From Mycobacteriales bacterium (GTDB lineage Bacteria > Actinomycetota > Actinomycetes > Mycobacteriales > CADCTP01), in assembly GCA_039648995.1 (NCBI GenBank), contig JBBWZH010000071.1:1-61270 (forward strand): a stretch of 61,270 nt of DNA, read 5' to 3'. Shown here one piece after another: positions 21,704-35,915 of this stretch (positions are counted from its first letter, which is position 1; each line of letters opens with the position of its first letter). The position numbers were made by a program, and so were the translations under genes. A model generated the notes under the pieces. It was given only the letters and a program-made list of their open reading frames with translations. It did not search any database and was not told the DNA's origin.

Positions 21704-22969
21704 GTGACTGGATCGGAGCGCGCGGTGGGCGCCCGGGCGTCGGGGAGTCCGCTGGTGGCGGGCCGATCGGGCGGTGCCGGGTGGGCGGCGCTGGTTCCGG
21801 CCGCGGAGCTGGTGGCGGCTGGCACGGTGGCGGGGGTGCCGGGGATGGTGCCGTCGCGGCGCCAGTCGCTGGCGGTGGTGCCGGAGTTGATCCTCGCCGA
21901 CGTGGAGCGGGCGGGGCGCGGGGTGATCGTGCTCGCGGTGGACGGGCTGCCGCTGCCGACCGCGCGGGACTGCTGGGGTGCGGCCGTGGTCGGCTGCCTG
22001 ACCAGCGTCTTCCCGACGGTGTCGGCGCCGGCCTGGCTGACCGCACTGACCGGCGCGGAACCCGCCGAGCACGGCGTGCCCGGCATGGTCTACCGGCTGC
22101 CGGGCCGACCGGTGCGCGTGCTCGCGGTCACCGGCCGGGCGCTGGACGACCCGGACCCGGCGCGCGGCGCGGGGGCCGATCATCCGGAACCAACAACTCT
22201 CGCGTCGGCGCCCCCGACGGTCTTCGAGCGGGCGCGGGAGCGCGGGGCCCGGCCGGTCGCGATCGGGCGGGAGCTGGACGGGCTGCCGGGCCCGTGGACG
22301 GACGCCCTGTTGCGCGGGGCCGACCAGCCGCTGGCCCGCCCGGCGGCGGGCGACCGGTTCCGGGCCGAGGCGGCCGACCCGGCCGCGGTGGTCCGGGCCG
22401 TGGTGACGGATGTGGAGCAGGTGCTGGCAGGCAGCCGGACGGGCCGGAAACAGCTGCTGTGGTGCTACCTGAACCTGGACGACCATCTGCACCGGCACGG
22501 GCCGGATGGCGCTACTGGAGAGGCGCTCGGCTGGCTGGCCGGGGTCGCCGCCGGCTGGGCGGGCCGCGGCTGGACCGTGCTCGCGCACTCCGACCACGGC
22601 CAGCGGCCCTGCGCCCGGGACCCGGAACTGGCCCGCGCCTGGGCGGAGCTGGACACGCCGGGGCTGTGCGAGCTCCCCGCGGGCGGCGCCGGCCGGGTGC
22701 GCTGGCTGCACCCGCTGCCCGGCCGGGCGGACGAGCTCGCCGGCCGGTTGGCGACGGCGCTCGGCGACGCGGCGCTGGTCGTCCGGCGTGCCGACCTGGA
22801 CCGGCTCGGCCTGATCCGGCTCACCCCGGCCCTGCACGCCCGCCTGGGGGAGGTGGTCGCGATCGCCGCCACCGACCGCTTTCCCGTGCCGGACCCGTCG
22901 CTGCGTTGGGAACACGGCAGCACCCACCCGGACGAGATGCTCGTCCCGCTCGCGGCCTGGCGGCCCTGA
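21704..22969 (+). CDS. Alkaline phosphatase superfamily / type I phosphodiesterase-nucleotide pyrophosphatase
   Basis: Metal and nucleophile motifs AVDGL, SVFPTVS, LDDHLH, SDHG, EHGS..DEMLVP. Start uncertain. Confidence 0.8.
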   Translation: MTGSERAVGARASGSPLVAGRSGGAGWAALVPAAELVAAGTVAGVPGMVPSRRQSLAVVPELILADVERAGRGVIVLAVDGLPLPTARDCWGAAVVGCLTSVFPTVSAPAWLTALTGAEPAEHGVPGMVYRLPGRPVRVLAVTGRALDDPDPARGAGADHPEPTTLASAPPTVFERARERGARPVAIGRELDGLPGPWTDALLRGADQPLARPAAGDRFRAEAADPAAVVRAVVTDVEQVLAGSRTGRKQLLWCYLNLDDHLHRHGPDGATGEALGWLAGVAAGWAGRGWTVLAHSDHGQRPCARDPELARAWAELDTPGLCELPAGGAGRVRWLHPLPGRADELAGRLATALGDAALVVRRADLDRLGLIRLTPALHARLGEVVAIAATDRFPVPDPSLRWEHGSTHPDEMLVPLAAWRP

Positions 22970-22993
22970 CCGCCACGGCGGCCCGGTCGGCCC

Positions 22994-33429: not shown

Positions 33430-34701
33430 TCACCTCCCTCCCCGCTGCGAGCTGTCCGTGCCGCCGGCCGGGCCGCCGGCGGTGGCGATGACCAGCCCAT
33501 CCAGCAGGCCGGCGGCGCGCCCAGCGACGTCGCCTGCGGTCACGGCGGCGACCCGCTCCAGGTGACCACGCAGTGTCCACTCCGGATCGTCGCCGATCAG
33601 CGCGTGCGCACCGAGCATGCTGGCATCCTCCAAAGAGGACTCCAGGTCGAGCTGCACCAGGCCGGCGACCCGCTGGCGCGCGCCGGCTACCTCGGCCTCG
33701 GTCCAACCGCGCTCGATCTGCTCGCCGAGCAGCCGCACCGCGAGCGACAACACCTCGTCCAACTGCTCGGGCGCGGTGGTCACGCCGGCCCGCCAGACGC
33801 CGGTGTCGCGGTAACCGCTGGCGTAGCCCCAGACGTCGTAGGACAGCCCGCGCCGGGACCGGATCTCCTCCACCAGCAGCGCCGCGTTGCCGCCGGCGAC
33901 CAGTTCCATCAGCACGTCGTACGCCGCGTGCCCGGGGTCGCCCAGCGGGACCGCGGCGCCGCCCAGGATCACCGCGGCCGAGTCGCTGTTCAGCCGGTGG
34001 TCGGCGCGGCCCGGGGTGACCACGGGTGGGTCGGGATCCACCGCCGGCGGCGGCCCGGGCGGCAGGTCGGCCAGCGGGCCGCGCTCGAACAGCCGGTGCA
34101 CCCGCTCGACCGGCAGGCCGCCGCTGACCACCACCGCCACCCGGCCGGCGTGCACGTGCTCGGCCTGGTGCGCGACCAGGTCGGCCGGCCGCAGCGCGGT
34201 GACCGAGGCGATGCTGCCGCCGACCGGCCGGCCCAGCGGGTGCGCGCCGAACGCGGTCTGGAAGAACACGTCGTGCACCACGTCATCCGGCTCGGACGCG
34301 GCCAGCCGCAGCTCCTCGCGGACCACCCGGCGCTCCGCCGCCACCACATCGGCCGGGAACGCCGTGTTGGTCAGGCTTTCCGCGAGCAGCGCCGCCGCCT
34401 CGCCGGCCGCGTCGGTCGGCACCCGGGCGTACAGCATCAGGTATTCGCGGCTGGTCACCGCGTTCGCCTCGCCGCCGAGCGCCTCGATCGCGTCCACCGG
34501 GCGGATGCCGCGGCCGGGTAGCTCCGCCTGCATCAGCACGTGTTCCAGCAGGTGCGTGATGCCGAGCGCGGCGCGTTCGTCCCGGGCGCCGGTGCGGAGC
34601 CAGACGGTGACCGCGCTGACCTCGGCGCCGGGCCGGTGCCGCACCAGTACCGGTACGCCCGACCGCAACGCGGCGCCCGACCCCACCGCCGCCACCGTCA
34701 C
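33430..34701 (-). CDS. M16 family (pitrilysin/MPP-like) zinc peptidase
   Basis: GARDE..LGITHLLEH (HXXEH), NAVTSRE, ERRVVREE, HPLGRPVGG, EIRSRRGLSY. Confidence 0.93.
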   Translation of the reverse strand: MTVAAVGSGAALRSGVPVLVRHRPGAEVSAVTVWLRTGARDERAALGITHLLEHVLMQAELPGRGIRPVDAIEALGGEANAVTSREYLMLYARVPTDAAGEAAALLAESLTNTAFPADVVAAERRVVREELRLAASEPDDVVHDVFFQTAFGAHPLGRPVGGSIASVTALRPADLVAHQAEHVHAGRVAVVVSGGLPVERVHRLFERGPLADLPPGPPPAVDPDPPVVTPGRADHRLNSDSAAVILGGAAVPLGDPGHAAYDVLMELVAGGNAALLVEEIRSRRGLSYDVWGYASGYRDTGVWRAGVTTAPEQLDEVLSLAVRLLGEQIERGWTEAEVAGARQRVAGLVQLDLESSLEDASMLGAHALIGDDPEWTLRGHLERVAAVTAGDVAGRAAGLLDGLVIATAGGPAGGTDSSQRGGR

Positions 34702-35915
34702 CGCACGCCACCGTCCACACCGGACACTGGTTCGTCCACAGTGGAGCCGTCTACAGTGGAGGGTCTGGGGTCGGCGGGCAGGTTGTCGAGCAGATCCTCG
34801 GTGAGCACGTCGCCGGGGGCGAGCAGGAACCGGCCGACCGGCGTGTCCGCCCAGACGGTCCTGCCGCGCCGGCCCAGCACGGCCCGGTCGCCGGCGGCCG
34901 GGGCGCCGTCCACCGGCAGGCCGAACAGCGGCATCCCGGCGTGCAGCGCGCGCTCGGCCGGCAGCCGGCTCTGCAGGATCGACCAGGCCCAGCGTTCCGG
35001 CCGGCGCTGGCCGCGGTGCAGCAGCCGGCGTTGCAGGTGCCGCAGCACGCCGTCGGCCGGCCGGCGGAAGGTGCCGGCCACTCCGGCCCCGCGCCGGATC
35101 CGGGCCGCCGCGACGGCCGCCGGCAGCCAGCGCGGCCGCGGCGCCGGCGGCAGCGGCGTGCCGGCGATCCGGGCGGCCAGCTCGGCGTACTCGGGCCAGA
35201 GCCGGAACCGGTCGATCGCCGACCAGAGCGTGCGGAGGCCGGCCCGCTCCAGCCCGGCCAGCAGCAGCGCCGCGTCCACCAGGTCACGGGCCCGGTACGC
35301 CTGCTCGAACCGCTCCAGCAGCAGCATCACCATGTTCTTGATCTCCGGCCGGCGCCACGGCGCGGGCAGGTCGAGCAGCGGCGCGACCCCGCCGAGGTCA
35401 CCGAGAGAGAGGTAGTTCGTCATTTCGACGGCAAACGGCACGGCGTACGGGTCGTCGTTCGGCTGGCGCAGGCTGACCAGGACCCGCAGCCGCCCGCCGT
35501 CCTGGCCGAACGTGGCCTGCCAGACCTCCCAGCCCCAGCCGCTCAGCAGGGCCGCGGCCTGCCAGAGCTCGGCCTCGTCCGGCACCCAGAAGTCGAGGTC
35601 GTTCATGTACCGCAGCAGGCCGGCCGGGTACCGATCCGCCACATCCAGGCCCTTCATCCCGATCAGGCCCGGCACCGCCGCATGCAGCTTCTCCGACAGC
35701 TCGCGGTAGCCGGCGATCCGGCCGCGCTGCAGGTCGAGCTCGTACCGGATGGCCGGGGTGAGCGGCCGGCCGGCCTGCTCCCAGGCGCTGTAGAGGGTCG
35801 GTGCGAACGACCACTCGCGGTGCCGCGCCAGCCACGCCGTCTCCCAGGGCGCGCTCGGCTCCTCCCCGCAGACGGCCGCCAGGACCCCTTCGAGCGTGGC
35901 CAGGCTCAATTCCAT
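34698..35915 (-). CDS. Nucleotidyltransferase-family protein (NTP_transf_5-like)
   Basis: MKGLDVADRYP.GLLRYMNDLDFWV (KG...Y...R..xDxD signature) and RDLVD. GGAG SD; GTGA-coupled to the M16 gene. Confidence 0.7.
   Translation of the reverse strand: MELSLATLEGVLAAVCGEEPSAPWETAWLARHREWSFAPTLYSAWEQAGRPLTPAIRYELDLQRGRIAGYRELSEKLHAAVPGLIGMKGLDVADRYPAGLLRYMNDLDFWVPDEAELWQAAALLSGWGWEVWQATFGQDGGRLRVLVSLRQPNDDPYAVPFAVEMTNYLSLGDLGGVAPLLDLPAPWRRPEIKNMVMLLLERFEQAYRARDLVDAALLLAGLERAGLRTLWSAIDRFRLWPEYAELAARIAGTPLPPAPRPRWLPAAVAAARIRRGAGVAGTFRRPADGVLRHLQRRLLHRGQRRPERWAWSILQSRLPAERALHAGMPLFGLPVDGAPAAGDRAVLGRRGRTVWADTPVGRFLLAPGDVLTEDLLDNLPADPRPSTVDGSTVDEPVSGVDGGVR

Follow-up and report, generated by a model that had tools for sequence, protein, structure and literature searches.

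Gene content and borders of the cluster

We analyzed a 61,270-nt stretch (the window) of contig JBBWZH010000071.1 from an actinomycete assembly (Mycobacteriales bacterium, GCA_039648995.1; G000 in our numbering; 7.26 Mb, 78% complete). The window carries ten enzyme and transport genes, six cationic mini-genes and the gene of a 49-residue cysteine peptide, which very probably form some kind of biosynthetic cluster that depends on a peptide. A preliminary description, made from the sequence alone, had placed the cluster at 21704–35915; its ten open reading frames (ORFs), their families, their start/stop overlaps and the convergent phosphodiesterase gene were all borne out. The ORFs were intact, with a high GC content at third codon positions. 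A phosphodiesterase (PDE) of the alkaline-phosphatase family (21704–22969, plus strand; the true start may be further downstream) converges with a predicted major facilitator superfamily (MFS) exporter (22994–24271, minus strand) across a gap of 24 nt. The minus strand then encodes an M28/DUF4910 metallohydrolase (24271–26217), a fusion protein of a class I methyltransferase and a HisC/CobD-like pyridoxal-phosphate (PLP) domain (MT-PLP; 26217–28199) and a PP-loop protein (28196–29410). Two FemAB-like proteins of the GNAT fold, Fem1 (29621–30631) and Fem2 (30628–31803), lie on the plus strand. On the minus strand follow a nucleoside diphosphate kinase (NDK)-fold phosphotransferase with a C-terminal extension of about 150 residues (31793–32704), the mini-genes, an M16 metallopeptidase (33430–34701) and a nucleotidyltransferase (NTase; 34698–35915).

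The ten proteins were assigned by Pfam to Phosphodiest, MFS_1, Peptidase_M28/DUF4910, Methyltransf_25 plus Aminotran_1_2, ATP_bind_3 (weak), Acetyltransf_6/FemAB_like (two genes), NDK, Peptidase_M16 plus M16_C, and NTP_transf_5 (PF14907; weak). Start and stop codons overlap as GTGA at NTase/M16, Fem1/Fem2 and PP-loop/MT-PLP, and as TGATG at MT-PLP/M28 and M28/MFS. No domains of non-ribosomal peptide synthetases, polyketide synthases, Lan, YcaO, ThiF, lasso or radical S-adenosylmethionine (SAM) enzymes were found in Pfam and NCBIfam scans of the ten proteins, as the preliminary description had also stated, and there were no Rfam matches within 21–37 kb.

The borders were set at about 21.7 and about 36.25 kb because the flanking genes recur only in the locus of the same genus. 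The gene of the 49-residue peptide (36064–36213, minus strand), which begins the cluster 148 nt before the NTase gene and which the preliminary description had not listed, thus lies inside the cluster, beyond position 35915, so that the earlier interval held for the genes it listed and not for the border. A flanking ornithine aminotransferase, a glycoside hydrolase of family 10 and an alpha/beta hydrolase were rejected as members, being shared with the same-genus locus only (1/31).

A conserved cysteine peptide accompanies the PP-loop gene

The PP-loop protein was used as a seed to collect 44 genome loci, 31 of them with full flanks; several others were cut by contig ends or by the 10-kb flank. 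When 1,936 small ORFs from the collected loci were clustered without bias, the 49-residue peptide formed the largest family. Its gene was present in 41 of the 44 loci (the three without it are truncated) and in all 31 full-flank loci. The N-terminus is leader-like, and the tail, F-R-T-[TN]-C-[TS]-D-C-[VL]-P-N-x, is near-invariant. A homologue search gave 389 clusters, whose names were all hypothetical among those listed. In the 120 listed of these 389, the tail residues F, R, T, C, D, C, P and N were invariant or nearly so (seven positions strictly), and the last residue varied among Y, W, L, F and M (120/120), with Asn penultimate. Over 31 sequences, the ratio of non-synonymous to synonymous polymorphism (pN/pS) was 0.14 in the last 12 codons and 0.55 in the 21 before, and the source peptide differed from that of the same-genus genome G001 by 13 synonymous and 3 non-synonymous changes. 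Judged by these substitution patterns, the peptide is under purifying selection.

The association was also seen from the peptide side. Among the best 80 of 88 peptide-seeded metagenome loci, another cluster gene was matched in 70, the remaining 10 being all 3.3 kb or shorter, and the PP-loop gene was present in 20 of the 24 loci of at least 10 kb. No family in Pfam or NCBIfam matched the 49-mer, and nothing above 0.78 was returned from the ESM Atlas. The general traits of a gene for a ribosomally synthesized peptide with post-translational modifications (RiPP) are all present: a short conserved peptide, a variable N-terminal part, a constrained core and co-occurring modifying enzymes. The 49-residue peptide is thus likely, from conservation and gene context, to be a precursor or sulfur-donor scaffold and the substrate of the PP-loop enzyme.

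Several loci have unusual surroundings. In L105, L113 and L115 the peptide gene is duplicated in tandem, and in L113 and L115 AMP-binding, thioesterase, condensation and ATP-grasp genes adjoin. Genomes G440 and G441 carry two to three copies of the peptide gene and three to four NTase paralogues, with stand-alone pairs of NTase and mini-genes among them. In L117 (1080–2684), a single case, the peptide gene has a divergent neighbor that encodes a tRNA synthetase of class I (Tyr/Trp-type) with an S4 domain; this may be a housekeeping gene or a resistance copy.

Co-occurrence and distribution of the cluster genes

With thresholds of E 1e-15 and 35% identity for promiscuous families, all ten genes were found in 17 of the 44 loci and at least eight in 22, which upholds the earlier proposal of a co-conserved biosynthetic cluster of ribosomal peptides and nucleotide-handling enzymes. 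Among the 31 full-flank loci, the counts were 28 for NTase, 27 each for MT-PLP, M28 and PDE, 25 for the NDK-like gene, 24 for Fem1, 23 for MFS, 21 for M16 and 19 for Fem2. PLP, M28 and PDE occurred together in 26/31. In variant clusters, the NDK-like and FemAB-like genes give way to a thymidylate-kinase-like gene and an ATP-grasp ligase; a nucleotide-kinase fold of either type was present in 30/31 and an amide-ligase-type gene (FemAB-like or ATP-grasp) in 29/31.

The full cluster is present in cultured strains of Streptosporangium, Sphaerisporangium, Nonomuraea, Acrocarpospora and Solwaraspora. Its distribution is patchy: when 401 genomes were sampled across the phylum, the NTase and the PP-loop protein were each found in 2, the source genome included. 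Genome G322, found through its NTase, also has the peptide, PDE, PP-loop, MT-PLP, M28 and Fem1 genes. The unpublished genome G022 underlies none of the claims made here.

The PP-loop enzyme resembles tRNA thiolases but lacks their Fe-S cysteines

In the tRNA thiolases NcsA and TtuA, a CxxC motif and a third cysteine are the ligands of a [4Fe-4S] cluster. The ancestral thiolase adenylates a uridine carbonyl, and the sulfur comes from the iron-sulfur (Fe-S) site. These uridine thiolases were the closest solved relatives of the PP-loop protein in a profile search (NcsA 6scy, E 2.5e-25). Its family comprised 83 representatives (50%-identity clusters) at E values up to 1e-30, and a search of viral contigs found no relative. 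Like NcsA and TtuA (PDB 6scy, 5mko and 5gha; with SAMP2/TtuB), the protein has a PP-loop SGGxDS motif, a C-terminal zinc finger and a ubiquitin/ThiS-like domain, the last fused here at the N-terminus. SGGxDS is kept, with D145 and S146 invariant in 58/58 aligned representatives. Unlike them, it lacks the Fe-S CxxC, the third Cys and the N-terminal zinc finger, a free GG is missing at the C-terminus of its ThiS domain, and its gene belongs to biosynthetic clusters in which a Cys peptide accompanies it. The CSFC of NcsA aligns to MVIGH and its CPY to GRF. None of the 58 aligned representatives has CxxC at that site. Fe-S thiolase activity of the protein alone was rejected. NCBIfam scores fell far below the equivalog cut-offs (NcsA 32.5 vs 500, TtcA 25 vs 272, TilS 19.9 vs 93.6). 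By sequence the protein is a descendant of NcsA/TtuA and likely the class-defining enzyme of the cluster.

The complex of the PP-loop protein with the peptide was predicted with a score of 0.39 (runs of 0.01, 0.39 and 0.57), against 0.02 for the best control. In the benchmark, 116 of the 157 solved pairs and 2 of the 215 mismatched ones reached the mark, and at scores of 0.60 or less only 18 of the 157 solved pairs reach it, as do both mismatches; contacts shared between runs were at least 0%, and the partner pLDDT was at least 44. The models hint weakly that the two proteins may bind each other. Such a complex would also suit a different arrangement, in which the peptide is a small subunit whose CxxC supplies in trans the lost metal or Fe-S ligands and so restores a thiolase acting on a small nucleotide; the absence of CxxC from the enzyme is matched there by an invariant C-x-D-C in the actinomycete peptide. 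We consider this decidedly improbable, since the peptide occurs in tandem copies in three loci, which is more typical of precursors, and the partner peptides of the distant relatives described below have a single Cys in three of four cases and C-x3-C in the fourth.

Distant relatives on plasmids

A plasmid search with five queries gave four distant PP-loop loci, in Geobacillus, Pantoea, Xenorhabdus and Paenarthrobacter. In all four, an ORF of 47–69 residues lies directly upstream of the PP-loop gene and has a Cys at position -9 or -10 from its C-terminus; in the actinomycete peptide the cysteines are at -8 and -5. A Cys at -8 to -10 was found in 3.8% of 598 control ORFs, the criterion having been picked after three of the four loci were seen. 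The Geobacillus peptide, on plasmid pGS18, retains F-R-T-C, and its compact version of the cluster includes a methyltransferase, a nucleoside phosphorylase and an MFS gene as neighbors. The Pantoea locus has homologues of PDE (33%), DUF4910 (34%) and the PLP domain (25%), a thymidylate-kinase-like gene and an NTase. This Pantoea locus (L169, plasmid NZ_CP134735.1) further encodes a phosphoenolpyruvate-utilizing-type protein, an FAD-binding protein, an amidase and a flavin monooxygenase.

The spacing of the Cys, 8–10 residues from the C-terminus in all lineages, is fixed as in a ring, and the tail is near-invariant. PP-loop-type lasso cyclases close peptide rings by adenylation. The PP-loop enzyme could likewise adenylate the peptide itself, either at a carboxylate (that of the C-terminus or of an Asp) or at a carbonyl of the backbone, whereupon a thiolactone or thiazoline ring would be closed by the Cys; the cyclic RiPP would then be phosphorylated, nucleotidylated, methylated and aminoacylated. 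The minimal Xenorhabdus and Paenarthrobacter loci, which consist of peptide and PP-loop genes only, with or without MFS, agree with such a course. It leaves unexplained the nucleotide-kinase fold in nearly all full-flank loci and the nucleoside phosphorylase of Geobacillus; moreover, the closest solved relatives of the enzyme act on uridine, and the last peptide residue varies. We regard self-cyclization as unlikely.

The cationic mini-peptides and the NTase form a second module

Between the M16 and NDK-like genes lie six mini-genes on the minus strand. Mini-gene 1 (33366–33425) encodes 19 residues with the cationic R-R-P motif; mini-genes 3 (33142–33198), 4 (33031–33087), 5 (32913–32969) and 6 (32797–32853) encode 18 each. 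Mini-gene 2 (33146–33322) has a 1-nt deletion relative to G001 and runs on, frameshifted, for 58 codons, so that five of the six are intact; a contig from a sequencing run that may be the source has no indel there. No RNA run was listed among the sequencing runs looked up. The shared motif is M-x-R-x5-R-R-P. The overlap of start and stop codons, which had been claimed for the units as a whole, holds for the enzyme genes and not for the mini-genes, which are spaced and non-overlapping, each with its own ribosome-binding site. A strict search pattern, derived from these mini-genes, gave five matches in the 7.26-Mb genome, all in the array. Hairpins of 10–15 bp were found in three of four inter-gene spacers folded; two of the spacers, and likewise the sequence that follows mini-gene 6, did better than nearly all of their shuffled versions. 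The Tat motif for twin-arginine translocation contains FLK. The mini-peptide motif is without FLK, and a Tat signal was rejected; so was a 31-codon ORF before the NDK-like gene as a conserved precursor, as it had no counterpart upstream of NDK in seven of eight loci viewed.

The NTase has the NTP_transf_5 fold with its KG and DxD motifs; KG..YP..R..DxD and DxxD are intact, and the fold is that of MenT1, LnuA and ANT(2''), with the C-terminal ~75 residues barely covered by the fold search. Its profile gave no match among PDB sequences. A mini-gene lay within 2.6 kb of 54 of the 64 NTase genes with enough flank, and a looser search found a cationic ORF upstream of five of the other 10. Stand-alone pairs of NTase and mini-gene occur at L028, L147, L149 and L150. 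Conversely, the module is absent from one Streptomyces cluster; genome G439 has a seven-gene version with peptide, PDE, PP-loop, PLP, M28, Fem1 and MFS genes, in which there was no NTase match (118 candidates scored), no cluster-type NDK and no mini-gene called in the locus. In L069 the NTase has shrunk to a short remnant and the rest of the cluster is retained. The mini-peptides are thus a second module that tracks with the NTase, separate from the Cys peptide and the PP-loop enzyme.

The preliminary description had cast the cationic peptide as scaffold or carrier. Its association with the NTase stands, but the conserved precursor is the Cys peptide, present in every full-flank locus. If the mini-peptides were the scaffold, the NTase would attach a nucleotide and the other enzymes would decorate the conjugate as in microcin C. 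The intact catalytic motifs and the frequent pairing just described favor this, and the related PsmN modifies a lasso RiPP (PMC6993621). Against it, clusters persist with no NTase or with a remnant only; Ser, Thr and Tyr are all missing in 14 of 126 distinct mini-peptides; C-terminal Asn is not conserved (those of the source end in K, R or T); and the 49-residue peptide is left unexplained, all of which makes the scaffold role quite unlikely. Because the mini-peptides track with the NTase, a role as carriers may still apply. For this module only, another explanation would make the NTase an enzyme of self-resistance or a toxin-like one (LnuA, ANT(2'') or MenT type), with the mini-peptides as its inhibitors or regulators and not as carriers, which seems to us hardly probable.

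Related NTase genes were also seen in other settings. L013 (G001:C1, ~6.452–6.467 Mb) and L165 (G440:C117) represent a third type of cluster, in which two FemAB-like genes accompany the NTase and NDK-like genes and neither a PP-loop match nor a precursor was found; L013 additionally has a thiamine-pyrophosphate enzyme, a methyltransferase, an MFS gene and a SARP regulator, and L165 a metallophosphoesterase and a radical SAM gene. The source genome has a second, divergent NTase (L167; G000:C640, ~26.5–30 kb) in an operon with P450 and MFS genes, adjoining MaoC-like genes, and no mini-gene was called there. Five Nonomuraea loci (L036–L041, ~1700–4450) have radical SAM and methyltransferase genes directly upstream of the NTase, possibly for extra tailoring.

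Conserved catalytic residues in the other enzymes

Metal-site residues are conserved in M16, M28 and PDE; in M16 the HxxEH residues H50, E53 and H54 were invariant in 14/14. The NDK-like protein has H135, R121, D138 and E146 invariant in 23/23; its catalytic His, as we take it to be from the numbering of NDK, is kept, and in the main type the presumed equivalent of NDK Lys12 is replaced. In MT-PLP, the methyltransferase domain resembles glycine/sarcosine N-methyltransferases and the PLP domain, with its lysine kept, resembles HisC/CobD. Within the PLP domain, a GVDGLA-type motif is repeated in tandem about six times (~26830–27030); this repeat is missing in 18 aligned homologues, G001 included. 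The best match of Fem1 was 9wqw, an aminoacyl-tRNA-dependent peptide synthase, with a weak E value of 0.0096, and the FemX matches of Fem2 were also weak (E 0.12–0.37). Because these matches are weak, we only infer that the FemAB-like proteins depend on tRNA.

Two neighboring regions of the window lie outside the cluster. The gene run at 1282–19143 resembles a type VII (ESX) secretion locus, as we presume from its small WXG100-like ORFs and its EccB-, EccD-, EccC- and EccE-like translations. At 36359–41594, an ornithine aminotransferase gene, not conserved with the cluster, is followed by hydantoinase/oxoprolinase A and B genes.

Comparison with known systems and a proposed pathway

In the Pearlins (TglA/3-thiaglutamate) and in excision-type RiPPs such as pyrroloquinoline quinone (PQQ), a ribosomal peptide is the scaffold or donor for a small molecule released by proteases, and M16 proteases serve PQQ. 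The ten genes here include no PEARL- or LanB-type ligase, radical SAM protein or RiPP recognition element protein. With microcin C (mccABCDEF), as presented in PMC8323819 and PMC11350588, the cluster shares a short peptide made on ribosomes, chemistry on nucleotides, one enzyme of the SAM fold and one that uses PLP, a GNAT fold, a peptidase and an MFS exporter. It lacks, however, a ThiF/MccB enzyme and a peptide ending in Asn (in the 49-mer, Asn is penultimate), and its peptidases are M16 and M28, not S66. The N-terminal domain of MccE is a group IV decarboxylase according to PMC11350588, whereas the PLP domain here is HisC/CobD-like. The methyltransferase resembles ordinary N-methyltransferases, and the GNAT-fold proteins, by weak PDB matches, are FemX-like and not MccE-type; the role-by-role mapping onto microcin C that had been offered is therefore loose. 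In the pseudomycoidin system (PMC6993621), PsmN, which belongs to the NTP-transferase family and has a DxD motif and an ANT(2'')-like fold, is paired with the kinase PsmK in modifying a RiPP and is needed for hexose addition to the phosphorylated C-terminal Ser of a lasso peptide; among our ten proteins there is no lasso cyclase or B1/B2 protein, and the mini-peptides have no conserved Ser. By its sequence, then, the cluster is not a microcin C system, a tRNA thiolase or a lasso/PsmN system.

A closer model is described in PMC12494993. In the 6-thioguanine pathway, YcfA adenylates GTP and adds L-Cys, and the PLP-dependent YcfC cleaves the S-adduct. An AANH-type adenylating enzyme thus works without persulfide chemistry, a Cys thiol attacks the adenylated nucleobase as nucleophile, and downstream a PLP enzyme acts; in our set an AANH/PP-loop protein and a PLP domain shared a cluster in 27/31 full-flank loci. 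YcfA, as described there, uses free L-Cys and GTP with no peptide gene, whereas the cluster has one. A YcfA-like reading is the simplest because the Fe-S site is lost, the adenylation loop is kept, the peptide, in which a Cys is the only residue common to all the phyla, is always alongside, and kinases, PDE and PLP enzymes are usually adjacent. By this analogy, we propose, with a little less than even confidence, that the PP-loop enzyme joins the sulfur of a peptide Cys to an adenylated nucleobase and that the other enzymes excise and tailor a nucleotide compound.

In such a pathway, the PP-loop enzyme would first adenylate a free nucleotide at a carbonyl of its nucleobase, which would be a pyrimidine if the enzyme has retained the specificity of its ancestor. 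AMP would then be displaced by the first Cys of the tail, as it is by free L-Cys in YcfA. The M28/DUF4910 enzyme and host proteases would next trim the peptide to a cysteinyl-S-nucleotide, after which the PLP domain would cleave the C-S bond or decarboxylate, and the fused methyltransferase would methylate the freed S or N. The PDE and the NDK- or thymidylate-kinase-like enzyme would set the phosphorylation state, and FemAB-like proteins (ATP-grasp in other variants) would add amino acids before export by the MFS protein. The optional second module, the NTase with cationic mini-peptides and in some cases M16, would load the modified nucleoside monophosphate onto an Arg/Lys-rich carrier or inactivate it. 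By analogy, the cluster may work like YcfA/YcfC and, through this module, like a Trojan horse.

What is observed is which genes the cluster holds, that they co-occur, that the catalytic motifs are intact, that the Fe-S cysteines have been lost and that, in distant phyla too, the enzyme has a Cys peptide next to it. Several points weigh against the proposed Cys-nucleobase coupling. Every chemical step is inferred. PDB sequence searches with the PP-loop and MT-PLP proteins returned no entry named YcfA or YcfC, so that we take the precedent as an analogy rather than as orthology, and what the PLP domain resembles is HisC/CobD and no named C-S lyase. The whole 12-residue tail with its two cysteines is near-invariant, although a disposable donor would not obviously need to be so constrained. 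No nucleotide-handling neighbors are seen at the Xenorhabdus and Paenarthrobacter loci. Among the actinomycete loci, L051, L054 and L058 (full-flank) lack PLP, M28 and PDE, L050 lacks PLP and M28, L057 has no PDE within its flank, and L042 has neither a cluster kinase nor the methyltransferase domain. Because the loci are related and some are redundant (L015 is G001), the counts overstate their independence.

No paper on the cluster was found by literature searches, among them searches for the peptide motifs and three accessions, and look-ups in the main texts of decRiPPter (PMC7794033) and RRE-Finder (PMC7470986) gave nothing relevant. The cluster is thus real, conserved, apparently undescribed, as had been suggested, in the literature searched (coverage is thin for subscription chemistry journals), and a candidate new class, as none of the known classes tested fits. 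Rule-based mining would likely miss the family because enzyme and peptide are unannotated and the usual RiPP core genes are lacking. The cluster might represent a new class of RiPP pathway in which an Fe-S-less thiolase descendant welds a peptide Cys to a nucleobase and a second, polycationic peptide family is the NTase-loaded carrier, that is, a two-peptide Trojan-horse antimetabolite system of actinomycetes with reduced forms in Bacillota and Gammaproteobacteria; in this full form, we consider the reading possible but rather unlikely. The compactness of the pGS18 version in Geobacillus makes the first step testable with two purified components. If the proposed coupling is correct, tRNA modification has given rise to a new chemistry of peptide C-S bonds or of nucleobases, and nucleotide antimetabolites of a new kind would probably be among the products.

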